Origin: Ekhidna sp.
Lineage (GTDB): Bacteria > Bacteroidota > Bacteroidia > Cytophagales > Cyclobacteriaceae
Direction of reading: 5' to 3'
DNA: 64,000 bases
Assembly (NCBI GenBank): GCA_965267215.1
Contig: OZ253940.1
Span: 2,478,097 to 2,542,096, forward strand
Positions 7,532-50,385 of the stretch are shown one piece after another. Positions within the stretch are counted from its first letter, which is position 1. The number at the start of each line of letters is the position of its first letter. The notes below the pieces were generated by a model. The model saw only the letters and a program-made list of their open reading frames with translations, was not told where the DNA came from and did not search any database. The position numbers and the translations under genes were made by a program.

Positions 7532-8278
7532 TTAAACCTGAGCCATTCCGCCATCGACAGGAAGCTCTACACCATTGACATAAGAGGCTTCATCTGAAGC
7601 AAGGAACAGTACTGCTTTTGCGATTTCTTCGCTCGTTCCCATTCTTCCTAATGGAACCATTGTTTTCACCTGCTCTTTAAAGCCATTGGCTTGCTCTTCT
7701 GTAAGATCCATTTTACCCCATACTGGTGTTTCTATGGGTCCGGGCGACATGGCATTAACTCGAATTTTTCTTGGAGCTAGTTCCATCGATAAGGTTCTCA
7801 CCAGCGACCGCATAGCTGCTTTTGTTGCAGCATATACACTCAAACCAGGCATCCCCTTTACATTTGACACGCTCGTATTCAGAATAATGCTCGCTTCATC
7901 ATTTAGATGTGGAAGGGCCGCCTGAATTGTGAAATAGGTACCAGCAAAATTCACATCCATCATAGCATCATAGTATTCACGATCAGCCATTTCAAAAGGC
8001 CTTGGCTTAGCGATACCCGCATTGATGAATAGCACATCAATCTTTCCAAACTTTTCTGCTGCTTGAATCAGTGCATTTTGCACTTTCTCTTCCTGACTGA
8101 CATCAGCTACTAAACCCAGAGAGTTTTCTGAAGCACTGGTATTAAAATCGTCTATTGCTTCTTGTCGTCTGCCTATAATTGTCACTTTCGCTCCTTCTTT
8201 TTCAAAAAGTTTCGCGGTTTCTAAGCCCATACCACTATTTCCACCAGTGATAAAGGTTACTTTGTCCTTAAGTCTCAT
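7532..8278 (-). CDS. Short-chain dehydrogenase/reductase (SDR)
   Basis: TGGNSGMG Rossmann motif, NAG, catalytic YAATK. Confidence 0.93.
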   Translation of the reverse strand: MRLKDKVTFITGGNSGMGLETAKLFEKEGAKVTIIGRRQEAIDDFNTSASENSLGLVADVSQEEKVQNALIQAAEKFGKIDVLFINAGIAKPRPFEMADREYYDAMMDVNFAGTYFTIQAALPHLNDEASIILNTSVSNVKGMPGLSVYAATKAAMRSLVRTLSMELAPRKIRVNAMSPGPIETPVWGKMDLTEEQANGFKEQVKTMVPLGRMGTSEEIAKAVLFLASDEASYVNGVELPVDGGMAQV

Positions 8279-8307
8279 TTCTAGTATTTTAAAATTTATA
8301 CTAGTTG

Positions 8308-8336
8308 TATCCGGCTATTGTGCGGGTGTGACAGAA
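8308..8336 (-). promoter_or_regulatory. Putative ECF promoter TTCTGTCACAC-N13-GGATA upstream of the SDR-DUF1330 operon
   Basis: Plus strand tatcc 8308-8312 and gtgtgacagaa 8326-8336; 30 nt upstream of the SDR ATG. Confidence 0.72.
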
Positions 8337-8431
8337 CCTGGGATATTTAATTAACAATTCCAGCACCAAACTTCATTTTAGATGTTGCATGCTTGATCAT
8401 CCACTCCTTTGATGAATCAAATTTCAAATCT

Positions 8432-8439
8432 TAACTTTG
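8432..8439 (+). promoter_or_regulatory. Bacteroidota housekeeping-sigma -7 element TAACTTTG
   Basis: Exact TAnnTTTG match 4 nt upstream of the PPIase ATG. Confidence 0.55.
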
Positions 8440-8443
8440 ACAT

Positions 8444-9250
8444 ATGCGAACTAACCTAATCATTCTTCTTTTCGGAGTACTGGCGGCTTGTTCCACTCCT
8501 AAAAGCAGTGAAGAAACTACTAAACCTATCCAAGTTGAACTTCAAACGACTAAGGGCACAATTATCTTAGAGTTATCTGACAAGACCCCTCAGCACCGAG
8601 ATAACTTCGTAAAGCTTATAGAAGCAGGAGTTTACGACAGTATCCTATTCCATCGAGTGATCAATGATTTTGTGGTACAAGCTGGAGAGCGAGATAGTAC
8701 ATATGTATTTGAGGATGATGAAATCAAAGACGATTATAAAGTTCCTGCTGAGTTTGACTCAACTCTGTTTCACAAAAGAGGGGCTCTGGGTGCAGCAAGA
8801 GATGGAAATCCGGAAAGAGCATCTTCAGCTATTCAGTTTTACATCGTTCAAAGAGGACCAAACGCTGATAGCCTTATTGATGAGGGAGAAACGCGGATCA
8901 ATAATTGGCTGGCAAGTCACTATACATTAAATGCCCCTGAAAATCAAGCGCTAAAGGATTCTATCACAAAAGCGATTGAAGAGGAGAATTGGGAGGAATA
9001 TTCGATGCTCAATGATTCCATTCAATCATTAGCAGAATCATTTGAATTCCAAAAATATGAAATACCGGAAGCCCATCGTGATACTTATCGAACGCTAGGT
9101 GGAACTCCACACCTGGATCAAAACTATACAGTATTCGGAGAGGTCGTCGATGGAATGAATGTAGTCGATTCCATTGCTGCAGTGCAAGTAAATGATCAGA
9201 ATCGTCCCATCAAGGATATACGGATTATCTCAGCACGAATTCTAAAATAA
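8444..9250 (+). CDS. Cyclophilin-type peptidyl-prolyl isomerase, lipoprotein
   Basis: Lipobox LAAC; FHRVINDFVVQAG, FHKRGALGAAR, HLDQNYTVFGEV. Confidence 0.92.
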   Translation: MRTNLIILLFGVLAACSTPKSSEETTKPIQVELQTTKGTIILELSDKTPQHRDNFVKLIEAGVYDSILFHRVINDFVVQAGERDSTYVFEDDEIKDDYKVPAEFDSTLFHKRGALGAARDGNPERASSAIQFYIVQRGPNADSLIDEGETRINNWLASHYTLNAPENQALKDSITKAIEEENWEEYSMLNDSIQSLAESFEFQKYEIPEAHRDTYRTLGGTPHLDQNYTVFGEVVDGMNVVDSIAAVQVNDQNRPIKDIRIISARILK

Positions 9251-19918: not shown

Positions 19919-21565
19919 CTAGATCAAAATTCTTACAGGGTCTTCTAATAGCTCTTTGAATGTTTTTAGAAAGGCAGAACCAACTGCACCATCAACCGCT
20001 CTATGATCACAAGAAAGAGTTACCTTCATCACATTTCCAGGCTTCATCTCTCGATTCTTCACAATAACAGTTTCTTTTATTCCTCCTACTGCCATGATAC
20101 ATGCATCAGGTGGATTGATAATTGCCGTAAATTCTTCTATACCGAACATCCCCAGGTTAGAAATGGTGAATGTATTTCCTGAGAATTCTTCAGGTTGTAG
20201 TTTTTTATCTTTTGCTTTTTGTGCCAGCTCCCTTACCTCGGCGGATATATGAGACAGGGATTTATTGTCTGCAAATCGAACAACCGGAACAATCAGGCCG
20301 TCTGGGATCGCTACAGCTACTCCAACATGAATATGTTGATGCTTCATCATATGATCTCCCATCCAGCTTACATTCACATCAGGATGCTGACGAAGTGCCG
20401 CAGCAGCAGCCTTCACCACCATGTCATTGAATGAAATTTTGACCGGAGCTACCTCATTAATGGATTTTCTAGCTTCGATGGCCTTATCCATATTGATCTC
20501 CATCGTCAGATAAAAGTGAGGTGCGGAGAATTTGCTATCGCTCAGGCGTTTAGCAATTACTTTACGCATCTGAGAAAGCTCTACTTTTTCAGAACCTTCT
20601 TCACCAACTACCTTTGGAATATTGATGGCTGGTTTATCGGATGTATCTCCTGATGCCGCTTGTGATTGCTGCGGCTGTGCAGATGGAGTAAAATCTTCAA
20701 CATCTTTCTTTACGATCCTTCCATCCGTTCCGGAACCATTGACCTGAGACAGGTCTATCCCTCTTTCAGAAGCAATTTTTTTAGCTAATGGGGATGCTTT
20801 TATCCTGCCATTGTTTGAAGCGTTAGAAGCACTAGGTTGAGTAGTAGCCGAAGGTTTAGCAGATGAAGTACTTTTTGGTGCTTCAGATTTTTCTTCTTTA
20901 ACCCCTTCTTTGGACTCATCTCCAACTTGCTCTTCGGCTTTTAGCAAGGCCTCATAGTCAGCATCTTCTTCTCCAATTATAGCTATCACTCCGTCTACCG
21001 GAACTCCACTTCCAGCCTCAACAGCCGTGTACAGAAGCGTTCCATCCTCATAAGCCTCTAACTCCATGGTGGCTTTATCTGTCTCCACCTCCGCTAGTAT
21101 ATCCCCAGACTCTACTTTATCTCCCTTTTTCTTTATCCAAGATGCTATAACACCTTCTTCCATCGTATCGCTCATTTTAGGCATACGAATGATAGATGCT
21201 TTGATGTTGCTTGTGTCGATCTTTTTTTCCGAGCTTGCTGGAGCTTTCTCCTCACTTGGTGCCTCATCTTCGCTTCCATTGGCTTGACCATCATTTGCTT
21301 CTTCCAATAGATGCTTATAATCTTCTCCTTTTTCTCCAATCACAGCCAGAATACCATCCACAGGTACGGACTCTTTTTCTTTGACTCCAATATGCAACAA
21401 GACACCATCCTGATAGGATTCTAATTCCATGGTTGCTTTATCGGTTTCCACTTCTGCAAGTACATCACCGGAACTCACTTCATCACCCTCTTTTTTCAAC
21501 CATGATGCAATCACACCTTCTTCCATGGTATCGCTCATTTTGGGCATTCTTATTACTTCAGCCAT
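19919..21565 (-). CDS. pdhC: Pyruvate dehydrogenase E2, dihydrolipoamide acetyltransferase with two lipoyl domains
   Basis: Two IRMPKMSDTMEEG...ETDKATME lipoyl domains; E3-binding ASPLAKK...GRIVKKDV; catalytic DHRAVDG. Confidence 0.96.
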   Translation of the reverse strand: MAEVIRMPKMSDTMEEGVIASWLKKEGDEVSSGDVLAEVETDKATMELESYQDGVLLHIGVKEKESVPVDGILAVIGEKGEDYKHLLEEANDGQANGSEDEAPSEEKAPASSEKKIDTSNIKASIIRMPKMSDTMEEGVIASWIKKKGDKVESGDILAEVETDKATMELEAYEDGTLLYTAVEAGSGVPVDGVIAIIGEEDADYEALLKAEEQVGDESKEGVKEEKSEAPKSTSSAKPSATTQPSASNASNNGRIKASPLAKKIASERGIDLSQVNGSGTDGRIVKKDVEDFTPSAQPQQSQAASGDTSDKPAINIPKVVGEEGSEKVELSQMRKVIAKRLSDSKFSAPHFYLTMEINMDKAIEARKSINEVAPVKISFNDMVVKAAAAALRQHPDVNVSWMGDHMMKHQHIHVGVAVAIPDGLIVPVVRFADNKSLSHISAEVRELAQKAKDKKLQPEEFSGNTFTISNLGMFGIEEFTAIINPPDACIMAVGGIKETVIVKNREMKPGNVMKVTLSCDHRAVDGAVGSAFLKTFKELLEDPVRILI

Positions 21566-21678
21566 TTAGATCGTCTTTAATTCTTTAGTTCAAAATTAAC
21601 CCATCAATCAAAATAAAAATTTGGAATCGAAACAAAATGATCATTGAGTAAGCGCTTTCTCGTATTAAATTGCCAAAA

Positions 21679-22362
21679 ATGTTAGACAGGTACACCATAA
21701 CATTAAATTCAGATGAGTTAGCACTGGTTTTGGGTGCGGAGGTTTCATCCAGGTACGAGCCTCAATACAATGCCGCTCCAACAAAAGTCTTACCCCTCAT
21801 CACCAGCCAAAATCCCGGTCAGGTTTCTTTTTTTAATTGGGGTTTAATGGCTATGTGGTCTAATAACAAAACAATGAGTCCTAAATTCTTCAACCTGCCT
21901 TTGGATTCGGTGATGTCAAAAAATACTTACAAGAAGAAAATTATTACCAATAGATGCATCATCCCAATGGATGGTTTTTATTTATGGAAACAAGTAGCAA
22001 AAAAACAGCAGGTACCTCACTATTTTTTCTACTCGGATAAAAAGGTATTTTCGGTAGCTGGCATATGGGAAGAAGGTGATGACAACACACACTCTTTCAT
22101 TATGATCACCAGGCCTGCAAATCCTCAAATAAGTTCTTTTCAAGGAGATATGCCTGCAATTATGGATGCCTCTTCCTCAAGAAAATGGTTAGAATCAGAA
22201 GATTTGGAAGAACTCAACGCCTTGCTTAGCACTGAAGTCAAAGACGAGTTCCTATCTCACACAGTAGCACCAAGAATTAGGGACATAGAAGGTAATGATG
22301 TTTCATTCATAAAACCGACTCCACCAGCGGATCAACATGGAAATTATACACTCTTTACCTAA
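21679..22362 (+). CDS. SRAP/YedK/HMCES-family protein lacking the catalytic Cys, Glu and His
   Basis: YNAAPT, WGL, RCIIPMDGFYLW, VAGIWE and MP motifs align to SRAP; ATG 21679 gives MLDRY. Confidence 0.85.
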   Translation: MLDRYTITLNSDELALVLGAEVSSRYEPQYNAAPTKVLPLITSQNPGQVSFFNWGLMAMWSNNKTMSPKFFNLPLDSVMSKNTYKKKIITNRCIIPMDGFYLWKQVAKKQQVPHYFFYSDKKVFSVAGIWEEGDDNTHSFIMITRPANPQISSFQGDMPAIMDASSSRKWLESEDLEELNALLSTEVKDEFLSHTVAPRIRDIEGNDVSFIKPTPPADQHGNYTLFT

Positions 22363-23453
22363 TGAAATTTAGATACCTTATTTGTTGGTTAATTGTATCT
22401 GCCTGCTATGTGGGAGAAGAAGTACCCCCTGATCAGATTGTCTGGGAATACGGAAGGCCTAAAGATTTTTCCGTTTCCGAAGACTCGCTTCTCTTCATAA
22501 ATTCAAAACTTCTTACTAATCAGCTGACTCGAGAGGAATTTGGCTTTCTTACCGGGTTAATTATTATCAAGAATAATCACTTGATTTTCGAAAACTATTA
22601 TCTGGGTGAAACTAGGGAAGTACGTCGAAATATAGGACAAGGCAGCCTCATTTTTACGCTTGCCGCCATTGGCGTAGCTGAAGACAAAAATCTTTTATCC
22701 ATCAATGATTTGATTTCTGAACATCTACCAGAATATTCAGAAATTTTTCAGGCCGATTCGGATAAAGAAGTTATTACAATAGAACACTTACTAACTCATA
22801 AAAGCGGATTTTCATGGAATGAAAGTATTTTTCCTATCATCAGCCCACAGAGTGATCTCAATATCATGAGGTCTAATAATGACTGGATACAATACATTCT
22901 GGAGAAGCCTCTGGAAGCCCCTCCAGGCTTGAGATTTAATCTCAATACAGCCACCGGCTTGATTTTGGCAAAAATCATCGAAAACGCCTCAGGCATGGAT
23001 TATTTAACCTTTCTTGATGAAAACATACTCAGTCCGCTAACCATTGAGTCCTTAACTGTTGAAACTGATCCCGAAGGAAATTTTAATGGAGGATTTGGAA
23101 TTAGTACTTCATTAATCGATTGGACGAAACTTGGCTATTTAATCTTAAATGAGGGCATATGGAATGGTAGAAAAATCATTGATCCCAATTTCATCCAAGA
23201 CGCTACATCTTTACAGACACAGGTAACAGGCAATTATAGTTTAGGGTACGTTTGGTGGCTTTTTGGAGAAAATTTTGAAACCAGTTTTGGAATAGAATCC
23301 GATGAAATATTCTATGTCCCTGGTGAATTGGGTCAGCATTTATACATTATTCCATCAGAAAATGTAATTGTTTCTATCTTCGCGGAAAACTATTTCTTTG
23401 GGTTTAATAATCCATCTTTAAAGTTATTTGGAGAAATAACATACGCTTTTTAG
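22362..23453 (+). CDS. Beta-lactamase/class C serine-hydrolase-fold lipoprotein with degenerate active site
   Basis: Lipobox VSAC; ITIEHLLTHKSG, KLGYLILNEGIWNGRKII, YGY-like YVWW; SxxK absent. Confidence 0.82.
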   Translation: MKFRYLICWLIVSACYVGEEVPPDQIVWEYGRPKDFSVSEDSLLFINSKLLTNQLTREEFGFLTGLIIIKNNHLIFENYYLGETREVRRNIGQGSLIFTLAAIGVAEDKNLLSINDLISEHLPEYSEIFQADSDKEVITIEHLLTHKSGFSWNESIFPIISPQSDLNIMRSNNDWIQYILEKPLEAPPGLRFNLNTATGLILAKIIENASGMDYLTFLDENILSPLTIESLTVETDPEGNFNGGFGISTSLIDWTKLGYLILNEGIWNGRKIIDPNFIQDATSLQTQVTGNYSLGYVWWLFGENFETSFGIESDEIFYVPGELGQHLYIIPSENVIVSIFAENYFFGFNNPSLKLFGEITYAF

Positions 23454-23462
23454 ATCAATAGT

Positions 23463-24032
23463 ATGAATTCTGATAATGACCTTTTGCTTTTCCAGCAGGT
23501 AAAAAGTGGTGATTTCTCCGCCTATGAGGTCATATTTAAGCGTTATTACAAAGAACTATATCGCTTTGCATTTACATATGTGAGAGATGCTACCATAGCA
23601 GAAGAAATGGCTCAGGAAGTATTTCTGTACATATGGGAAAAACGGATCAATATTGAAATTCAAACAACCCTAAAGACCTATCTTTATTCGGCTGTCAAAA
23701 ACAAGTGTTTGAACTACATTAAATTGGAACTGCCAAAACAACAATCCATGGCCGATGTGAGTGAGGTACTTCTTAGTGTCAGTGCACCAAACAAAGATGA
23801 AGGAGAGAATGACAGACTAAAGAAATACATACAATCAGCGGTGGATGCCCTTCCAAAAAAATGCCGGAGAATTTTCATCCTGAGTAGGAATTCAGGTATG
23901 ACCTACGAAGAGATAGCTGAAGAGCTAGATTTATCTAAAAAAACCGTAGAAAATCAAATGGGTATTGCGCTGAAAAAACTTAGAGAATCGCTTGAGAATG
24001 TTTATAAACACTATAAGGAACACATGATGTAA
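23463..24032 (+). CDS. ECF sigma-70 factor (Bacteroides expansion type)
   Basis: AEEMAQEVFLYIWEK; LPKKCRRIFILSR; TYEEIAEELDLSKKTVENQM. Confidence 0.93.
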   Translation: MNSDNDLLLFQQVKSGDFSAYEVIFKRYYKELYRFAFTYVRDATIAEEMAQEVFLYIWEKRINIEIQTTLKTYLYSAVKNKCLNYIKLELPKQQSMADVSEVLLSVSAPNKDEGENDRLKKYIQSAVDALPKKCRRIFILSRNSGMTYEEIAEELDLSKKTVENQMGIALKKLRESLENVYKHYKEHMM

Positions 24033-24086
24033 AAAAGTTGAAAAAAACTTAGGGGTCTGTCCCCAAAGTTTTGACTGACAAATGAG

Positions 24087-24971
24087 ATGGCAAACGACCT
24101 GAGAATATACAACCACCTGAACTACAAAGATGATTCTCACGAAGAGAGTGATGGATTTGTAGACTTCCTATTTCAAAACAGCGAAATAGATATACCTGAG
24201 ATAGACGAGGAGAGAGCGTGGGAAGCGTTAAATCAAAAGATTTATCAACCGAAAAAATCTATTTCATGGATGAAAGTAGCAGCAACAGTTGCTATTCTAG
24301 CCGTTCTTTCTGTAACGGTTTATCTGTACAACCCATCTCCATCAACTGTTAGTATCGCATCAACTGACCAAATAGTGAATGTCACGTTCCCTGATGGATC
24401 TACTGGGATTCTAAATAAAAATTCTTCTTTTTCTTATCCTGAAAAATTTGGTAAAGAAAGAAATGTTTCTTTCACAGGAGAAGCGTATTTCGACATCCAA
24501 AAAAGTGCTAAGCCTTTCATCATAGACGTCAATGGTGTTGATGTGAAAGTTTTAGGAACCGCATTTAATCTTGTGACCACAAAAAATCAAGTAAAATTGT
24601 ATGTTGACAGAGGGCTAGTTGCTTTTGAAAAAGATGGAGAGCAAACACAGGTCCCTGCTGGTAAAGAAGCGATTTTTAATCGTGCAAATGCTTCTGTAAA
24701 CATAAAAAATACTCCTGATGAAAATATCATGAGTTGGAGAAGTGGAATTTTCAATTTTGATGACACCCCACTAAAAAAGGCACTTCCTGAGTTAGCTGAT
24801 TACTATGAAGTAGAGTTTGAACTCTCAAATGGTCAGCTTAATGAGTGTAAAATAACAGCTACTTTCAATAAGAAGACTTTGAAAGAAGTATTGGAAACCA
24901 TAAGTACTGCACTTAATGTAAAAGCTGTTATCAAAAACGATAAGGTAAAAATTTCAGGGCAAGGTTGCTAA
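24087..24971 (+). CDS. FecR-family anti-sigma factor
   Basis: One TM helix; PDGS..LNKNSS, GEAYFDI, KVLGTAFN, W..G.F.F.DTPL. Confidence 0.92.
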   Translation: MANDLRIYNHLNYKDDSHEESDGFVDFLFQNSEIDIPEIDEERAWEALNQKIYQPKKSISWMKVAATVAILAVLSVTVYLYNPSPSTVSIASTDQIVNVTFPDGSTGILNKNSSFSYPEKFGKERNVSFTGEAYFDIQKSAKPFIIDVNGVDVKVLGTAFNLVTTKNQVKLYVDRGLVAFEKDGEQTQVPAGKEAIFNRANASVNIKNTPDENIMSWRSGIFNFDDTPLKKALPELADYYEVEFELSNGQLNECKITATFNKKTLKEVLETISTALNVKAVIKNDKVKISGQGC

Positions 24972-24998
24972 GTCCGGCCTGGGCTATTCATTACTTTT

Positions 24999-27626
24999 GT
25001 GGGCGTGTATTTCGTCCGCATCATCTACTTACGTAAGTTTTTGACACTCGTCCTTTTAGGTGGGGTCATTGTGTGCGCGAGTGCCCAGGAAAATCCTCTG
25101 GACAAAAAACTTGAAAACACGGATGAATCAACACTGTTTCAGCTATTAGACTCTATAAGAGCAAAGGGCGTAAAGCTGGCTTATAGTTCCAATAAACTAA
25201 CCAATCAACAAATTGAAATTTATGGAACACCTACCATAAGAGCGTTTTTTGATTATTTAGAACAACATCGCATTGCTGATGTAGTCTATGAGGGTGATCA
25301 AATTATTGTCCTCCAGCATACCCCAAAAAACTACACAGTACATGGGGTGCTAAGAGATGTGGAAACTGGTGAACACATCATTGGTGCAGCCATTGAAGTT
25401 CAAGGATTACAATTGGGAACTACCACAAACGGATATGGTTATTACTCACTCACTATTCGAGAAGGAGACTATAATCTACGATTTTCACACATTGGTTACC
25501 AGACGCATGAAACTGAAATATCTCTATTTAAGGATTATTATTTAGAAGTTTCCTTATCACCACAAATAACAGAGCTCGAGGTAGTAGAAGTTGTTTCCAT
25601 TTCAGATGATGTGAATCTAACTGAAACGATTCCTTCTATTAATCGAATCTCGATTTCGGGTGCGGATGGACAAATACCCTACTTTCTAGGTGAAGTAGAT
25701 GTCATTCAAAATGCGCTACTCAAGCCTGGAATAAGAGCAATTGGTGAGGACGCCAGCGGCATTCATGTACGTGGAGGTGGAGTCGATCAAAATCTCACCC
25801 TGTTGGATGAAGCTATTATTTACAATCCAAACCACTTTTACGGACTAATATCAGTATTCAACCCAGAGGCTGTCAATGATGTTCGAATAATGAAAGGCTA
25901 CATTCCACCATCATATGGTGGCAGATCTTCATCTGTTATCGAAGTACGACAAAAGGAAGGGAATATAAATAGAACAAGCGTTTCTGGTGGAATTGGGGCA
26001 CTTTCAGCCCGAGTACTTGTTGAAGGTCCCATTCATGAGGGTAAAAGCTCTTTTTTAGTCTCCGGTAGACAAAGTTTGCTAAACTTATCCATTGATGATT
26101 TTGCAAGTACATCTGTGCAGAGAAATAGAATAAGGTTCCAGGATCTAAATCTAAAACTGAACTTTAAATACAGCCAGGCAAGTACGTACTACTTATCAGG
26201 ATATTTAGGAAATGATCGGAATATCGCAGGCCTTACCTCTACCAGGAATTGGGGAAATAGAATGCTTAACTTCAGGTGGAATTATCTTTTCACACCCCGC
26301 TTATTTTCAAATATTTCTGCTTTTTATTCCGAATACAATTATCGAATTGAAAATACTGAAGAACCAGGGTCCTTTGTAGGTCGATCCAAGATCTCAGATG
26401 CCGGTGTGAAAGTGAACTTAACATCTGATTTATCTCCATACAATGAGCTTTCTTACGGATTTAGTTTCATTTATCACCGTCTCATTCCGGGAGTTCGTGA
26501 ACCCCTTGATCAAAGTACAACTACCAATAGAGTCAAACTGGAAGATGAACGTGGAGTTGAATCAGCACTTTTTATCGGGCAAAAAACGTCAATAGGTAAT
26601 CTGTCATTTGACTATGGATTGAGGGTTAGTAGTCTGCAAACATTTGGTCCTGGTTCAGTATTTGAATATAAGGATGATATTCCTTTAGCTGATTCTACGA
26701 TTACTGATACGTTGAGATTTGATAATCTTGATCTGATCTATAGAGACGTGAATTTTGAGCCAAGGGCTTCTATTAATTGGCGGATGAATAAAACCACGTC
26801 TCTCAAAGCGGCATTCAGTAGAACTGCTCAATACCTACATCTGATTTCTAACACCATTTCACCAGCACCAACAGATATCTGGAAATTGAGTGGACGATAC
26901 ATCCCTCCTACTACCACGAATCAATACACTATCGGTCTTTACAAAAACCTAAAATCTAACACGTGGGAGCTATCTTCAGAGTTATACTTTAAAGACATAC
27001 AAAACAACATTCAATATAAGAATGGTGCTGATCTCATTTTTAACGAGAATGTTGAAACAGAGCTCCTATTGAGTCAGGCTAGAGCCTATGGTTTAGAATT
27101 GTACGCAAGAAAAAGGACAGGAAGATTGCAAGGATGGATCAGCTATACACTTTCCAGGGCAGAAAGCCGAATACCAGAAAATGGAGATCAGCGATTTGTT
27201 TTAGAAAATCATGATAAGACTCATGATTTTTCCACATCGTGGAGTATGAAAATCTCTCCAAGGCTAAATGCATCAGCAAATTTTGTTTACAACACAGGAA
27301 TCCCGGTCACACTGCCTACGGATAAATATATTTTTGAGGACAATCTGGTTCCACACTTTCAGTTTAGGAACAACTCTCGATTGCCAGATTATCATAGATT
27401 AGATTTATCCGTACGATGGGAAGGTAGAAACTACAAGAAAAAAGGGAGTAAAAAGAGAAAAAACAGAGACTACTGGATTTTGACAATCTATAATGTCTAT
27501 GCGAGACAGAATGCTTATTCCTATTTTTATAGAGAGTCACCAATAGATCCAGGCACTGCCCAAGTTGTTAAGTATTCCATTTTTGGCACGATAATCCCGG
27601 CAATCACTTACAATTTCAAGTTCTGA
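24999..27626 (+). CDS. TonB-dependent receptor with N-terminal STN-like and carboxypeptidase-regulatory-like domains
   Basis: GTTTNGYGYYSL, VRGGGVDQNLTLLD, YGGRSSSV, LPDYHRLDLS, C-terminal YNFKF; start codon uncertain (GTG). Confidence 0.92.
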   Translation: MGVYFVRIIYLRKFLTLVLLGGVIVCASAQENPLDKKLENTDESTLFQLLDSIRAKGVKLAYSSNKLTNQQIEIYGTPTIRAFFDYLEQHRIADVVYEGDQIIVLQHTPKNYTVHGVLRDVETGEHIIGAAIEVQGLQLGTTTNGYGYYSLTIREGDYNLRFSHIGYQTHETEISLFKDYYLEVSLSPQITELEVVEVVSISDDVNLTETIPSINRISISGADGQIPYFLGEVDVIQNALLKPGIRAIGEDASGIHVRGGGVDQNLTLLDEAIIYNPNHFYGLISVFNPEAVNDVRIMKGYIPPSYGGRSSSVIEVRQKEGNINRTSVSGGIGALSARVLVEGPIHEGKSSFLVSGRQSLLNLSIDDFASTSVQRNRIRFQDLNLKLNFKYSQASTYYLSGYLGNDRNIAGLTSTRNWGNRMLNFRWNYLFTPRLFSNISAFYSEYNYRIENTEEPGSFVGRSKISDAGVKVNLTSDLSPYNELSYGFSFIYHRLIPGVREPLDQSTTTNRVKLEDERGVESALFIGQKTSIGNLSFDYGLRVSSLQTFGPGSVFEYKDDIPLADSTITDTLRFDNLDLIYRDVNFEPRASINWRMNKTTSLKAAFSRTAQYLHLISNTISPAPTDIWKLSGRYIPPTTTNQYTIGLYKNLKSNTWELSSELYFKDIQNNIQYKNGADLIFNENVETELLLSQARAYGLELYARKRTGRLQGWISYTLSRAESRIPENGDQRFVLENHDKTHDFSTSWSMKISPRLNASANFVYNTGIPVTLPTDKYIFEDNLVPHFQFRNNSRLPDYHRLDLSVRWEGRNYKKKGSKKRKNRDYWILTIYNVYARQNAYSYFYRESPIDPGTAQVVKYSIFGTIIPAITYNFKF

Positions 27627-28459
27627 TGAAGAGACTTTTATACATACTGCTTCCTGTTTTACTAGCTTGTGAAAAAGTTGTAGAAGTAGATTTACCTCCA
27701 GCACAAAATCTTGTTATTGTAGAAGGATGGCTCTCTGACGAAAATGGAAATCAACCGATTCGGATTACCAAGTCCAATGCTTTTTCTGACAAGAATCCTG
27801 TCCAACCAATTACCAATGCACAAGTCATTGTTCAGGCACGAACCGGGGAGATTTTCTCATATAGCTACAACTCAGATGGGTATTATCATGCAGACAACCC
27901 TTTCAGCGGGCAAATAGATGTGGAATATCGATTGAGGATAGTCATTGATGATAGCGTCGAAATCAGATCCGACTGGGATAGAATGCAAGAGAAAGTCTCA
28001 ATAAACACCTTGGAAGTGGACTCATTTCAAGAAAATGACCCAAATGATTCTGATAGGCAGATCACTGTGTACTTTCCGAAAATAACAACTCAAGATCCTG
28101 GGGATGCTGAAAATTATTATCGATGGCAGTTTATTAAGAATAATATCATATTCAGTGAACCAGAATCAATTACCATTCAAAATGATCGATTATTTAATGG
28201 CAATCTTATCCCTAACAATTTCAGAAATTTCGACTATGCTTCTGGTGACGAAATGACTGTTAGACTCATTTCAATCTCCCAAAGTTCACATAATTATTTA
28301 TCACTTCTTAAATCACAAATCACAACTTTGGGAACATCATCGGGGACTACCCCGGCCATCGTAAACGGCAATCTCTTTTACGTTGACAATGTAAACCAAT
28401 TGGTGTTGGGATATTTTGGAACTACCGCTATCAGTGAAAGTATGGCAAATGTTCCATGA
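27626..28459 (+). CDS. DUF4249-family lipoprotein
   Basis: Lipobox LLACEKVVEVDL; NYYRW; PAIVNGN...LGYFG; one-base overlap with the TonB receptor stop. Confidence 0.88.
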   Translation: MKRLLYILLPVLLACEKVVEVDLPPAQNLVIVEGWLSDENGNQPIRITKSNAFSDKNPVQPITNAQVIVQARTGEIFSYSYNSDGYYHADNPFSGQIDVEYRLRIVIDDSVEIRSDWDRMQEKVSINTLEVDSFQENDPNDSDRQITVYFPKITTQDPGDAENYYRWQFIKNNIIFSEPESITIQNDRLFNGNLIPNNFRNFDYASGDEMTVRLISISQSSHNYLSLLKSQITTLGTSSGTTPAIVNGNLFYVDNVNQLVLGYFGTTAISESMANVP

Positions 28460-28497
28460 TATTTGGGGGTATTCCAGTTGAAAATCAACTATAAGAT

Positions 28498-28587
28498 ATG
28501 AAAACGAAAATAACCCTAATAATCGCTTCATTGCTTTTGGCTATCCTTGGAATAAAAGCAACGAGGAAGATGAGAAAAGCTTCTTAA
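28498..28587 (+). CDS. Candidate 29-aa single-TM small protein MKTKITLIIASLLLAILGIKATRKMRKAS
   Basis: Below the ORF-track cutoff; ATG after an A-rich leader, hydrophobic core, basic tail, followed by an intrinsic terminator. Confidence 0.5.
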   Translation: MKTKITLIIASLLLAILGIKATRKMRKAS

Positions 28588-28613
28588 AAAGAATACACCT
28601 AAAGGACTATACT

Positions 28614-28643
28614 AATGTCACTCAAAATCGAGTGGCATTTTTT
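28614..28643 (+). terminator. Intrinsic terminator closing the ECF-FecR-TonB unit
   Basis: AATGTCACTC-AAAATC-GAGTGGCATT then a T tract. Confidence 0.7.
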
Positions 28644-28664
28644 ATTTGTAGGAAACTTAATTGG

Positions 28665-28707
28665 AAATAAAAAGCAAACGGAGCGCCCTCACCAAAGCAA
28701 CTCCGTT
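28665..28707 (-). terminator. Probable minus-strand intrinsic terminator
   Basis: AACGGAG (28677-28683) / CTCCGTT (28701-28707) stem; the minus-strand tail reads TGCTTTTTATTT. Confidence 0.5.
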
Positions 28708-28890
28708 CTAATTCAACCAGCTATGGATTGTTTTTTATGTCTTTGTTGGTTCAAGATTAACGAAGATTTTTTTAACGGACACACCTCATTCGTCCATTCA
28801 AATGAAATATTAGATAAACACCTGTATATCCCCGATTAAGAAAATTCGCATTGCAATATTCTGTGGTAAACCCACTTTTTTACATATTTT

Positions 28891-29337
28891 TCAACCTTCA
28901 GATAGTATTCTTCGATGATAGTTTATTTGGCCTGTATGATAGTTCATATGGCCCTGAAGATGAATTAAAAAGTAGCTTGTAGTCATTGGGTAGCCAAAAA
29001 CTTCCAGTGGGTATAATTCATCAAGCGCTGAAGTTTTGACTTTTCCGAAGTATTGAGTAATTACTTCTTTGGTGATCTCAATCTCCTTTTTGATTTGCTC
29101 GAAAGGCAGTCTTCCTTGAAATTCAAAATCTCGGTTGCGTACATATCCGTTTTGAGCAAGGGTGGCACCAATAAAATGCTGTAGATTTCCACATAGATGG
29201 ATAAAAAGATTTCCTGCAGTGTTATTTATTCCTTCAACCTTCAACCACAAAGATTCCTCACTTGGATATGATTCCAATTCTTTTTGCAACCTATCCAAGT
29301 CCCTTTCGAAGAGTTTTGCTAAATCTTCCACAATCAT
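28891..29337 (-). CDS. DinB/DUF1572-family protein
   Basis: NTAGNLFIHLCGNL, RNRDFEF, HLQGHMNYHTGQINYHRR His motifs. Confidence 0.88.
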   Translation of the reverse strand: MIVEDLAKLFERDLDRLQKELESYPSEESLWLKVEGINNTAGNLFIHLCGNLQHFIGATLAQNGYVRNRDFEFQGRLPFEQIKKEIEITKEVITQYFGKVKTSALDELYPLEVFGYPMTTSYFLIHLQGHMNYHTGQINYHRRILSEG

Positions 29338-29338
29338 T

Positions 29339-29938
29339 TTATGAGTTCATTTTAAATTTCATTGTATAAAGATCGCTTGTTTTCTCTTTAAACTGATCCA
29401 TCAGGTCTTTTTTGATTTCACCTGAAATCTTACATGATAGCTGAAAATCTCTTTCTAATACATCAATTTCAAAATCACTAATGAGCTTCTCGGCTGTGCT
29501 TAACATATCGTATGGAAAATTCATTTCAACAAGAATGGTTTCAAAGATTTCCTTCTTTCTGATCTTAGAAAGAGCATTTTCTGAAGCAGACTTATATGCA
29601 CTTATTAAACCTCCAACACCAAGCTTTGTACCACCAAAATATCGGACTACTACAATCAGTGTATTAGTTAATTCAAATGATCTGATTTGGCCTAAAATGG
29701 GATCTCCTGCGGAATGGGCAGGTTCACCATCATCATTTGATCGATGGCGTTGATTATCCATTCCTAAAATCCAGGCGTAACAATGATGCCGTGCATCATA
29801 ATACTTTTTTCTAAGTCCATCTTGAATGTTTTTAATCTCCTCCTCTGATTGAACTGGATATGCGAAAGCTAAAAACTTGCTCCCTTTCTCTTTATAAATC
29901 CCCTCTGATGGACATTCAATGGTGTAGTAAGTACTCAA
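29339..29938 (-). CDS. yigZ: IMPACT/YigZ-family protein
   Basis: EKGSKFLAFA, ARHHCYAW, NDDGEP..SAG, VVRYFGGTKLG.GGL. Confidence 0.93.
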   Translation of the reverse strand: MSTYYTIECPSEGIYKEKGSKFLAFAYPVQSEEEIKNIQDGLRKKYYDARHHCYAWILGMDNQRHRSNDDGEPAHSAGDPILGQIRSFELTNTLIVVVRYFGGTKLGVGGLISAYKSASENALSKIRKKEIFETILVEMNFPYDMLSTAEKLISDFEIDVLERDFQLSCKISGEIKKDLMDQFKEKTSDLYTMKFKMNS

Positions 29939-48797: not shown

Positions 48798-49271
48798 ATG
48801 AAAAAACTATTGATAATTGCGCTGACCATTTTCTCTATCCAAACGATTGCTCAAGAGAATGAGAAGAAAGAAATCATGTTCGTAATCAATAATGTATTTG
48901 AAGCCATGCGTAAAAGCGACAGTTTATTACTTAAGTCCTCTTTCGTGGAAAGTCCCAACACTTTCACCGCTTTCATCAATCAGGAAGGTAAATCACAGCT
49001 AGTGATGGGTGATTTTCAACGCTTCATCAAGGCTATTGGTCAACCAAAGGAACAAGTTTGGAACGAACCCATATGGAATGAAAAGGTAGAAGTTGATGGA
49101 AACCTGGCTTCTGTTTGGGTTGATTATGCTTTCTATGTAGATGATCAATTCTCTCATTGTGGGGTTGATGCTTTTCACTTAATAAAACGAGAAGATGGAT
49201 GGAAAATCTTTCATCTAGTAGATACCAGAAGAAAAACCAACTGTGAAATCCCTGATAACATCAAGCCTTAG
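48798..49271 (+). CDS. Secreted NTF2/SnoaL-like protein
   Basis: Signal peptide; LASVWVDYAFY..FSHCGVDAFHL..WKIFHLVDTRR. Confidence 0.85.
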   Translation: MKKLLIIALTIFSIQTIAQENEKKEIMFVINNVFEAMRKSDSLLLKSSFVESPNTFTAFINQEGKSQLVMGDFQRFIKAIGQPKEQVWNEPIWNEKVEVDGNLASVWVDYAFYVDDQFSHCGVDAFHLIKREDGWKIFHLVDTRRKTNCEIPDNIKP

Positions 49272-50326
49272 AGCTCGCTGGCTAATTGAAAATAAAGAAC
49301 ACTTAAGTAAAAGACATCTTCCCATACTCCTGAGGTATTGGATGCAACGAAAGTAACTGCGTTTATATCTGGTAATAACATGAATTGAACTGAGGCTCCT
49401 GTCTGAGTACCGCTGTGTCCCATCACATTACCGTATTTGGGGTTTTCACCATAGAGGTATAGACCTAGCCCATACGGATTTCCATTTTTCTTCAGTCCTG
49501 AATCAGTAATCATAGACTGAAAAGATGATTTTGAAATCAATTTTTTATTCATCAAGGCATTACCAAAAAGCAAGACATCCTCCACGGTAGAATAAAGACC
49601 TCCCCCAGGAATACGGTCACTAAGATTTGTTCGCTCCATTTTTTTCACTTTCCCTTTTGAGTTTCGATGATATACTCCACTTTGAAAACCTAATTCATCT
49701 TCCACTCTTTCCACACCAGTATTATTCATTCCTGAAGGAAGAAATACATTGACCCGCAAATAGTCTTCATATCCCATCCCTGATACATTTTCAATAATCA
49801 TCCCAAGCAAGATATAGCCATATGTAGTATATTGAAAGGAGCTTCCTGGCTTCAGCTCTAGTGGATCATTTTTAAAAATGGAAAAAGCGTCAGGAAGTGT
49901 AGAATACTCTTTTTTGTTTTCCCTTTCCTTTGAGGACTTGTATGCTCTGATTCCTGAAGAGTGATTGAGCAACTGTCGAACAGTGACTTCTGATAAGTGA
50001 GCTGGTATATTATTTACATATTCTGCAGTTCTATCATCTAGTTGTATTTTTTTATTCTCGACTAATTGCATGATAGCTACTGCCGTAAACACTTTAGTAA
50101 CTGATGCAATACGTACACGAGTATCCGTACTCATCGACTCATTCTTCTCCAAATCAGAATAGCCGGATGAAATCACCAGTTGCTTCTTTCCTTTACAAAA
50201 ACCAGCCACCATTCCAACGGACTTACTTTTCTTTAAGTAGGCCTCCAATAAAGAATCAGGCCTTGAGTTTTGGCCGAAAACGAAGTTCACGATTACTAAT
50301 ACAGTGAAGAATAGAGTTTTTCTCAT
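49268..50326 (-). CDS. Serine hydrolase, beta-lactamase family, intact active site
   Basis: RIASVTK (SxxK), FQYTTYGY, GHSG; ATG 50326 gives a signal peptide. Confidence 0.9.
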   Translation of the reverse strand: MRKTLFFTVLVIVNFVFGQNSRPDSLLEAYLKKSKSVGMVAGFCKGKKQLVISSGYSDLEKNESMSTDTRVRIASVTKVFTAVAIMQLVENKKIQLDDRTAEYVNNIPAHLSEVTVRQLLNHSSGIRAYKSSKERENKKEYSTLPDAFSIFKNDPLELKPGSSFQYTTYGYILLGMIIENVSGMGYEDYLRVNVFLPSGMNNTGVERVEDELGFQSGVYHRNSKGKVKKMERTNLSDRIPGGGLYSTVEDVLLFGNALMNKKLISKSSFQSMITDSGLKKNGNPYGLGLYLYGENPKYGNVMGHSGTQTGASVQFMLLPDINAVTFVASNTSGVWEDVFYLSVLYFQLASEL

Positions 50327-50385
50327 GATTGAAAGTAGTTTCACGAATAAACGAAATAGAATTTCCAAATACGATATAATGAGCC

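Follow-up and report, generated by a model that had tools for sequence, protein, structure and literature searches.

A FecIRA-type signaling cluster in Ekhidna with a putatively lidded TonB transducer, a conserved dead lipoprotein and a neighboring dead SRAP-like gene

Positions 21679 to 28643 of a 64,000-nt stretch of Ekhidna DNA (the window) carry, all on the forward strand, genes for a SRAP-fold protein, a beta-lactamase-fold lipoprotein, an extracytoplasmic function (ECF) sigma factor, a FecR-type anti-sigma factor, a TonB-dependent receptor, a DUF4249 lipoprotein and a 29-residue peptide. ECF-FecR-TonB units relay outer-membrane signals, and comparison with related loci reveals that the cluster is a variant of such cell-surface signaling with a putatively lidded TonB transducer, the core of which is already known. 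An earlier note, made from the sequence alone, had proposed a single operon in which both pseudo-enzymes serve as accessory sensors. Our results are consistent with an accessory role for the dead lipoprotein, the linkage of which to the signaling genes is conserved, whereas the SRAP-like gene appears to be a neighbor of the cluster, outside the machine. We consider it rather probable that the sigma factor, FecR, the STN-bearing transducer and the DUF4249 lid, with the dead lipoprotein and the membrane peptide as conserved extras and the SRAP-like protein excluded, work as one FecIRA-type signaling and uptake unit in the manner set out below.

The features of the region are as follows.

21679..22362 (alternative start 21670), + strand: dead SRAP-fold protein of 227 residues; Pfam SRAP PF02586, 143.8 bits, residues 4-204
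22362..23453, + strand: dead beta-lactamase/penicillin-binding protein (PBP)-fold lipoprotein of 363 residues; Pfam Beta-lactamase PF00144, 82.2 bits; lipobox VSAC15
23463..24032, + strand: ECF sigma factor, FecI-like, Bacteroides expansion family; TIGR02985, 168.9 bits (cut-off 126.4); Pfam Sigma70_r2 and r4_2
24049..24075, + strand: motif A, promoter-like, TTAGGGGT-N14-TTGAC, stopping 11 nt short of the FecR ATG
24087..24971, + strand: FecR-type anti-sigma factor; Pfam FecR 47.6 bits, FecR_C 57.2 bits
24992..24999, + strand: housekeeping −7 box TACTTTTG, an exact TAnnTTTG match immediately 5' of the receptor gene
24999..27626, + strand: TonB-dependent transducer with signal peptide, STN (~36-106), CarboxypepD_reg, plug and barrel; Pfam CarbopepD_reg_2 and Plug
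27626..28459, + strand: DUF4249 lipoprotein, putative lid of the transducer; Pfam DUF4249, 110.8 bits; lipobox LLAC15
28463..28489, + strand: motif B, promoter-like, TTGGGGGT-N14-TCAAC, stopping 8 nt short of the small open reading frame (ORF); its second half-site is weaker
28498..28587, + strand: single-helix membrane peptide of 29 residues, MKTKITLIIASLLLAILGIKATRKMRKAS, conserved across loci
28614..28643 (hairpin 28614-28639), + strand: intrinsic-terminator-like hairpin found by scan, a 10-pair stem followed by the T tail TTTTTATTTGT, closing the cluster
19919..21565, − strand: dihydrolipoamide acyltransferase (E2) gene, divergent from the SRAP-like gene; Pfam 2-oxoacid_dh 293 bits with lipoyl and E3-binding domains

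The ORFs, their order, their junctions and the terminator had been described in the earlier note, and all were confirmed by the ORF list, Pfam, reading of the sequence and the terminator scan. The SRAP-like and lipoprotein genes share a TAATG with a 1-nt overlap at 22362, 9 nt precede the sigma gene, and the receptor and DUF4249 genes overlap by 1 nt. The earlier assignment of the 29-codon ORF to the unit also holds, in that the encoded single-helix membrane peptide is conserved and its gene has a promoter-like motif to itself, which rules out a chance ORF; the peptide has no match in Pfam or NCBIfam.

The signaling core and the dead lipoprotein

An STN signaling domain marks the receptor as a true transducer. 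Its N-terminal 190 residues give a confident AlphaFold2 model, with alternating helices and strands at 36-106 (predicted local distance difference test score (pLDDT) 83-94 over these), and a profile of residues 30-112 built from 20 orthologues matches the signaling domain of PupA (2a02, E 1.7e-5), as well as the N0 domain of PilQ, the C-terminal domain of a FecR-type anti-sigma factor and FpvA. Pfam found no STN match in the window receptor alone, the domain being recovered solely via the orthologue profile; among the 20 orthologues it assigned STN in 4/20 and FecR_C in 7/20. A Foldseek search with the N-terminal model returned the CarboxypepD_reg/NTE domain of SusC transporters rather than STN, the best local match prevailing in such a search. 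The receptor itself is a non-SusC transporter, scoring 45.5 bits with the SusC model TIGR04056 against a cut-off of 368. FecR has an N-terminal cytoplasmic part, a single membrane helix (hydrophobic residues 62-81 of the translation) and periplasmic FecR and FecR_C domains.

The cluster can be compared with three kinds of known system. Like FecI-FecR-FecA and PupI-PupR-PupB of Proteobacteria, it comprises an ECF sigma factor, a FecR-type anti-sigma factor with a C-terminal STN-like domain, and an STN-bearing TonB transducer; unlike them, it has a CarboxypepD_reg domain between STN and plug, a DUF4249 lid, a dead lipoprotein whose gene is coupled to that of the sigma factor and, at the end, a membrane peptide, as well as a putative sigma promoter before fecR and not solely before the transporter, and nothing in it points to regulation by iron. 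DUF4249 lipoproteins have been put forward as lids for non-SusC transporters, with which they are cofit (10.1101/2023.03.17.533168), and for BT2172-BT2173 of Bacteroides thetaiotaomicron a transporter with its lid was proposed on the basis of AlphaFold-Multimer and cofitness (10.1101/2023.03.17.533168). The window transporter likewise has an adjoining DUF4249 gene (the 1-nt overlap and 110.8-bit match given above), but its pair lies under a cell-surface signaling trio and is accompanied by two more conserved small genes and the dead lipoprotein. A third class is ECF240 (formerly ECF10; TIGR02985), the ECF/anti-sigma/SusC signaling systems of Bacteroidota, with which the window cluster shares a sigma factor scoring above the cut-off and the order sigma-FecR-transporter; in contrast, it employs a non-SusC barrel and a DUF4249 lid rather than SusC/SusD, and the dead lipoprotein and its barrel partner (see below) are new. 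Bacteroidota have on average ~22 ECF sigma factors per genome, of which the FecI-like ECF240 group is the commonest, and no ECF240 member had been studied experimentally as of Casas-Pastor et al. 2021 (PMC7826278).

As the earlier note had claimed, both the SRAP-like protein and the lipoprotein look inactive, their catalytic residues being gone. In the lipoprotein GQGSLIF stands in the catalytic region, there is no Ser-x-x-Lys in any register, and FNLNT takes the place of Tyr-x-Asn. SxxK is missing from its whole clade, which reaches down to ~35% identity, whereas S-x-x-K is retained in relatives of less than 30% identity, and the N terminus of the mature protein, CYVGEEVPPDQ, is conserved. 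The best solved relative is the Leptospira lipoprotein Lsa45 (8dc1), which has the same fold over ~290 residues (E 4.5e-21) and a lipoprotein/surface location, followed by a class C beta-lactamase-related serine hydrolase (8rlj, PF00144; E 1.7e-17); both, however, keep the Ser-x-x-Lys and Tyr-x-Asn motifs lost clade-wide here. Because the catalytic losses are family-wide, the lipoprotein and the SRAP-like protein are conserved pseudo-enzymes rather than products of decaying genes, and sequencing error as their cause is ruled out, the losses being common to whole conserved families. A second beta-lactamase-fold ORF in the window (49268-50368, − strand) matches the dead-lipoprotein profile weakly (41 bits).

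The linkage of the lipoprotein was studied in a scan with one genome per species, which returned 80 loci from Ekhidna, Marinoscillum, Cyclobacteriaceae, Roseivirgaceae and relatives, annotated with profiles made from the proteins described here (comparison loci in related genomes or metagenome contigs are given L-numbers where one must be named). The full ECF-FecR-TonB-DUF4249 module lies directly downstream of the lipoprotein gene in 42/65 loci with enough flank. The gene 5' of the lipoprotein is SRAP-like in 14 loci, all of the Ekhidna clade and with gaps of −4 to 0, and encodes a small exported barrel protein in 61; the full module follows in 13/13 SRAP-type and 29/52 barrel-type loci, with the ECF gene only in 3 more of the latter. 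The small exported protein is a predicted 8-stranded barrel (pLDDT 87) that matches the OmpA transmembrane domain, OmpX, Ail and NspA. Even three distant lipoprotein homologues (35-41% identity) have the start of their gene overlapped by that of a 205-213-residue exported protein with no Pfam match; a divergent ECF-anti-sigma-DUF4097 unit lies upstream, and in one of these loci (L008) ECF-FecR-receptor-DUF4249 genes lie directly downstream.

In a maximum-likelihood tree of the lipoproteins the SRAP-linked sequences (16 rows) fall into a single clade with support 100/99, nested among barrel-linked ones. The module is ancestral to a 64-row clade, being found in its deep branches, and the 'no module' label changes five times overall, at least four of these changes being losses inside the 64-row clade. 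The linkage between lipoprotein and sigma factor is thus old and maintained, yet dispensable and lost several times, and the contact with the SRAP-like gene is a single late event in which that gene replaced the barrel gene. A profile search for the barrel partner gave 19 matches, none of them named Ekhidna, although the word-index search used is too insensitive to prove absence.

An accessory role for the lipoprotein, as the earlier note had suggested, is plausible because its linkage to the ECF-FecR-TonB-DUF4249 genes is conserved, and often translationally coupled, across deeply diverged Cytophagales. Synteny across Cytophagales, which that note had named as a check, is accordingly found for the lipoprotein (in the 42 loci above) and for the SRAP-like gene is limited to one clade; its caveat that the two might be just neighbors fits the SRAP-like gene.

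Several observations weigh against this role, as the lipoprotein and the signaling unit are separable both ways. In about 20/52 barrel-type loci the barrel and lipoprotein genes lack the module and have unrelated neighbors, such as genes for transaldolase, an ABC ATPase and an oxidoreductase, and two loci (L002, L091) keep SRAP-ECF-FecR-transducer-lid without the lipoprotein. Further, about half of the barrel-type loci are flanked by a second, divergent ECF-anti-sigma-DUF4097 unit, such that the pair is not bound to one kind of sigma unit. These properties would suit an independent outer-membrane module, in which the lipoprotein (with the barrel elsewhere) adjoins ECF units through shared ancestry or envelope regulation and has no part in ligand capture or signaling by the transducer. 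We regard this as somewhat unlikely, while the strongest of the alternatives, since lipoprotein and module are never separated where both are present, the lipoprotein-sigma gap ranging from −17 to +53 nt, with a 4-nt overlap in many cases, at lipoprotein identities down to ~35%; neutral synteny rarely preserves an overlapping stop and start to such depth while all the outer flanks change. The arrangement of a lipoprotein and a small 8-stranded OmpA-like barrel beside envelope-signaling genes recalls the lipoprotein-in-barrel sensors exemplified by RcsF-OmpA, by analogy only; the lipoproteins are unrelated in sequence and fold, the barrel partner is not in this window, and threading of the lipoprotein through the barrel is again analogy only.

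Where a divergent ECF gene shares a spacer with the barrel gene, this spacer contains GTTGCA (TGCAAC on the other strand) in 29/29 cases (L008-L010, L024-L079; background 0.0003 per nt), a sequence that probably serves the divergent ECF-anti-sigma-DUF4097 unit as its −35 element; 11 of these loci also carry TAAGTTTA a few bases 5' of the barrel ATG.

Promoter-like motifs and transcription units

The sigma-FecR spacer contains a conserved bipartite motif, tTT[AG]GGGGT-N14-TTG[AC]C (motif A), of which GGGG(T) is present in 49/49 module loci and the full form, TTRGGGGT-N14-TTG(A/C)C, in most, with the FecR ATG ~35 nt past the first G. A second copy (motif B) lies 6-70 nt past the DUF4249 stop in 40/46 loci (searched within 130 nt), and is followed in most, at the same distance as in A, by a gene for a single-helix peptide of 28-38 residues. 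Sites A and B are the sole occurrences of TTRGGGGT in the 64-kb window, and other matches to the motif number ~7 in 1.7 Mb on both strands, four being untagged sites upstream of FecR genes and three lying elsewhere. No GGGGT motif was found upstream of the barrel genes or the SRAP gene. The second half-sites of the two copies co-vary, TTGCC pairing with TTGCC in 11/11 loci, and TTGAC with GAC in 17, GTC in 6 and GCC in 3. Because copies A and B co-vary, the motif is probably the promoter of the cognate sigma factor. A two-copy promoter-like motif of this kind has no description in the full-text literature searched.

Three considerations count against the assignment: the co-variation is phylogenetically clustered in two or three lineages, the second half-site of motif B is degenerate in the window (TCAAC), and it is from conservation that the promoters, the transcription units and the leaderless starts are all deduced. 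The sequence of the locus is absent from all three RNA-labeled sequencing runs bearing the same species label; in one of four runs, of unstated kind, that do contain it, assembler word depth is flat over the stretch.

The motif could alternatively be an RNA-level or repressor-binding element, such as a translational operator at a fixed distance from the fecR and peptide start codons. The constant ~35 nt from first G to ATG would suit translational action, and in several loci the GGGG pairs with a downstream CCCC (in the window, GGGGTCTGTCCCC). The hairpin is, however, not conserved, none being found in L001, L008 or L015, whereas both half-sites are conserved in sequence rather than structure, and the bipartite layout with a 14-nt spacer is the geometry of an ECF promoter. 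Rfam returned nothing at E ≤ 1 over 21000-29500, and the housekeeping −7 box before the transducer is equally near its start codon; we therefore consider a non-promoter element improbable. A hairpin at 24048-24067 that had been flagged as a minus-strand terminator was rejected, as it overlaps motif A and is not conserved.

The −7 box at the FecR-receptor junction would be a further, housekeeping signal. Bacteroidetes promoters have a −7/−33 architecture (PMC13472631). The exact box is found in this junction in 28/48 loci, against ~0.035 expected per 80 nt, and TAnnTTTG is depleted in the window as a whole (40 matches versus 67.5 ± 8.5 in shuffles), which fits selection against stray promoters. 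The receptor probably starts at GTG 25005 rather than at 24999, because the spacing from the −7 box is then equal to that in L013-L019 and L030; its mRNA would be nearly leaderless. The E2-SRAP spacer is conserved in the clade and contains a −7 box with one mismatch. A scan for E. coli-type sigma-70 promoters was uninformative, with 35 sites against 33.4 expected.

The cluster is thus probably not one simple operon. The earlier note had proposed a single transcript from the SRAP-like gene to the small ORF, a proposal at odds with the conserved promoter-like motifs at 24049-24075, 24992-24999 and 28463-28489; of the two observations that it had named as telling against its model, internal promoter-like motifs are present, but conserved linkage does exist for the lipoprotein. 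Three units are probable: SRAP-lipoprotein-sigma, for which the tight junctions are compatible with one unit, driven by a promoter in the E2-SRAP spacer that does not depend on the sigma factor; fecR-transducer-lid, driven by motif A, with the basal −7 box before the transducer; and the small peptide from motif B up to the terminator.

Two side elements lie near the end of the cluster. At 28664-28730 (with islands to ~28880) the window has a 62-nt non-coding element, ATAAAAAGCAAACGGAGCGCCCTCACCAAAGCAACTCCGTTCTAATTCAACCAGCTATGGAT, that is letter-identical in the window and 10 other species loci of the Ekhidna clade and is always right past the cluster end, while the neighboring proteins are just 50-75% identical. 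It contains the hairpin AACGGAG-N17-CTCCGTT, followed on the minus strand by TGCTTTTTAT, and has no match in Rfam nor, by ARAGORN, to a tRNA or tmRNA; it could be a small RNA or a 3'-end element on either strand. In most non-Ekhidna loci, though not in the window, the small membrane peptide gene is followed 3' by one for a ~60-residue protein, KISRGLxKLL..NHF..NP..R..Y..F..AQLxEIA (L001 16943-17152, L007 14900-15124, L008 14322-14501, L037 16225-16413 and others), which has no match in Pfam or NCBIfam.

The SRAP-like gene as a neighbor

Abasic-site cross-linking by YedK/HMCES requires the N-terminal Cys together with a Glu and a His. In the window protein MLDRY replaces MCGR (Cys2 to Leu2), GFYLW replaces GFYEW (Glu lost) and FQGDMP replaces xHDRMP (His lost). 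The fold is that of YedK/HMCES (143.8 bits in Pfam; the BT_1218-like 2f20 is the best solved relative, E 1.8e-18), and the equivalent of Asn75 is retained; without Cys2, Glu and His, however, thiazolidine cross-linking would be impossible, and with Leu at position 2 the initiator Met would stay. The change is conserved: 120 homologues of 42-79% identity begin M[LVIY]DRY, and a 22-member alignment has 34 invariant columns.

The clade of Bacteroidota SRAPs into which the protein falls is marked by the C-terminal motif DQ[HFY]GN[YL]TLF and includes both live (MCGRY, GFYEW, HDRMP) and dead members. The Cys, Glu and His have been lost largely in coordination, the Cys-less members lacking all three throughout and the MCGRY members keeping all three, although a few members (MCDRY, MCRRY) retain Cys2 yet miss Glu and His. 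The window protein ends in the invariant DQHGNYTLFT (motif at 22333-22359 in the window, and in L093-L153), a motif it has in common with live clade members, whereas SRAPs of other phyla in the metagenome scan described below end in QQSLW, GQMTLL or ELRLF. The C-terminal motif resembles a beta-clamp-binding motif; the literature searched contained nothing on Cys-less SRAPs or on clamp-binding motifs in bacterial SRAPs. That a dead SRAP clade retains the C-terminal motif of its live members is a separate, small question for DNA-repair biology.

Linkage from the SRAP side was studied by looking up six SRAP-like proteins and by a metagenome scan with the family profile, which returned 80 loci. 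The look-ups revealed the full cluster in L001 and L007, and, in L002, the cluster minus the lipoprotein. The cluster was missing in L003, L004/L005 and L006, where the SRAP-like gene either follows E2 plus a hydrolase gene and precedes OmpA/PD40 genes, or lies near SpoU and MutS. Among clade loci outside Ekhidna that have sufficient flanking sequence, a lipoprotein or ECF gene lies downstream of SRAP in 0/33. The divergent E2-SRAP arrangement of the window recurs in L001-L003, L006 and L007, and a divergent E2 gene is within 1.6 kb in 10/25 metagenome loci of the SRAP clade, live members included. The E2 gene, itself context outside the signaling system, is an ancestral neighbor of the SRAP clade, and these counts together argue that the position of SRAP beside E2 predates its contact with the signaling cluster. 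In two marine metagenome contigs (L096 and L106, 7944-11803, − strand) a dead SRAP gene is followed by a convergent, different and only weakly related ECF-FecR-receptor unit, a proximity that is probably fortuitous, since a genome has so many ECF units.

In the Ekhidna lineage, the lipoprotein-sigma block would have come to abut the SRAP gene, displacing the small outer-membrane barrel gene, such that the SRAP gene now probably merely lends its promoter to the block. We regard the SRAP-like gene as a bystander because its adjacency has a single origin, a barrel gene has its place elsewhere, and the cluster is never downstream of its non-Ekhidna clade orthologues. The gene nevertheless stays fused to the block in all 16 members of the clade, which weighs against a bystander and leaves room for its co-option.

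The earlier model, in which both pseudo-enzymes are accessory sensors in one operon, the lipoprotein binding a periplasmic ligand and the SRAP-like protein passing a cytoplasmic cue (e.g. DNA damage) to the sigma factor, can point to that fusion (a TAATG or ATGA overlap in 14/14 species loci), to the continued adjacency of SRAP and sigma genes where the lipoprotein is lost (L002, L091), to a junction that leaves no space for a promoter, such that SRAP and sigma are very probably co-transcribed, and to an unrelated Cyclobacteriaceae locus, L069, in which a live SRAP (8251-8970; MCYD..., ending QQGTLF) is 350 nt 5' of the barrel gene, but it is very improbable given the single origin in the lipoprotein tree, the unrelated barrel gene in the SRAP position in 61 species, the complete lack of the cluster downstream in the 33 clade loci elsewhere, and the identity of invariant residues and of the DQHGNYTLF end, found also in live MCGRY members, between ECF-linked and unlinked SRAPs, which gives no sign of a new function. 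The proximity in L069 may be coincidence or a hint at a recurrent SRAP neighborhood. The case is instructive in that the sequence alone, with a 1-base overlap and probable co-transcription, suggests operon membership, while comparative data indicate that SRAP only lends its position.

Proposed working and significance

With the SRAP-like protein left out, the signaling unit may work as follows. The upstream, sigma-independent promoter would yield the sigma factor and the dead lipoprotein, and the housekeeping −7 box a basal level of transducer and lid. The lipoprotein would bind without chemistry, capturing or presenting a ligand at the outer membrane; the ligand-loaded transducer would signal via STN to FecR, resulting in release of the sigma factor, which would then fire the two copies of its own promoter, before fecR-transducer-lid and before the peptide gene. 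Both sigma promoters are so near the start codons that the mRNAs would be nearly leaderless. The simplest view of the lipoprotein, which we hold tentatively and just short of favoring outright, is that it is a non-catalytic binding protein that helps the transducer-lid pair to see its ligand.

A bolder reading, to which we give little credence at present, is that the dead PBP-fold lipoprotein, partnered in most lineages by the 8-stranded barrel, is a new kind of Cytophagales ligand sensor at the outer membrane, wired to ECF units, for which the ligand could be a small molecule derived from peptidoglycan or resembling a beta-lactam, and, separately, that TTRGGGGT-N14-TTG(A/C)C is the first defined promoter of Bacteroidota FecI-like sigma factors, giving near-leaderless fecR and peptide mRNAs. 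No dead beta-lactamase-fold lipoprotein reported with TonB systems was found in the literature searched, and, relative to that literature, what is new is this lipoprotein (paired with a barrel in other lineages), the small peptide at the end of the cluster and the two-copy candidate ECF promoter.

The overall results suggest that this family of loci offers a concrete candidate promoter for FecI-like sigma factors, present in two co-varying copies, and with it a defined small regulon comprising the anti-sigma factor, the transducer, the lid and a membrane peptide. They also provide a conserved candidate for a non-catalytic binding protein, the fold of which hints at the class of ligand that it may recognize.

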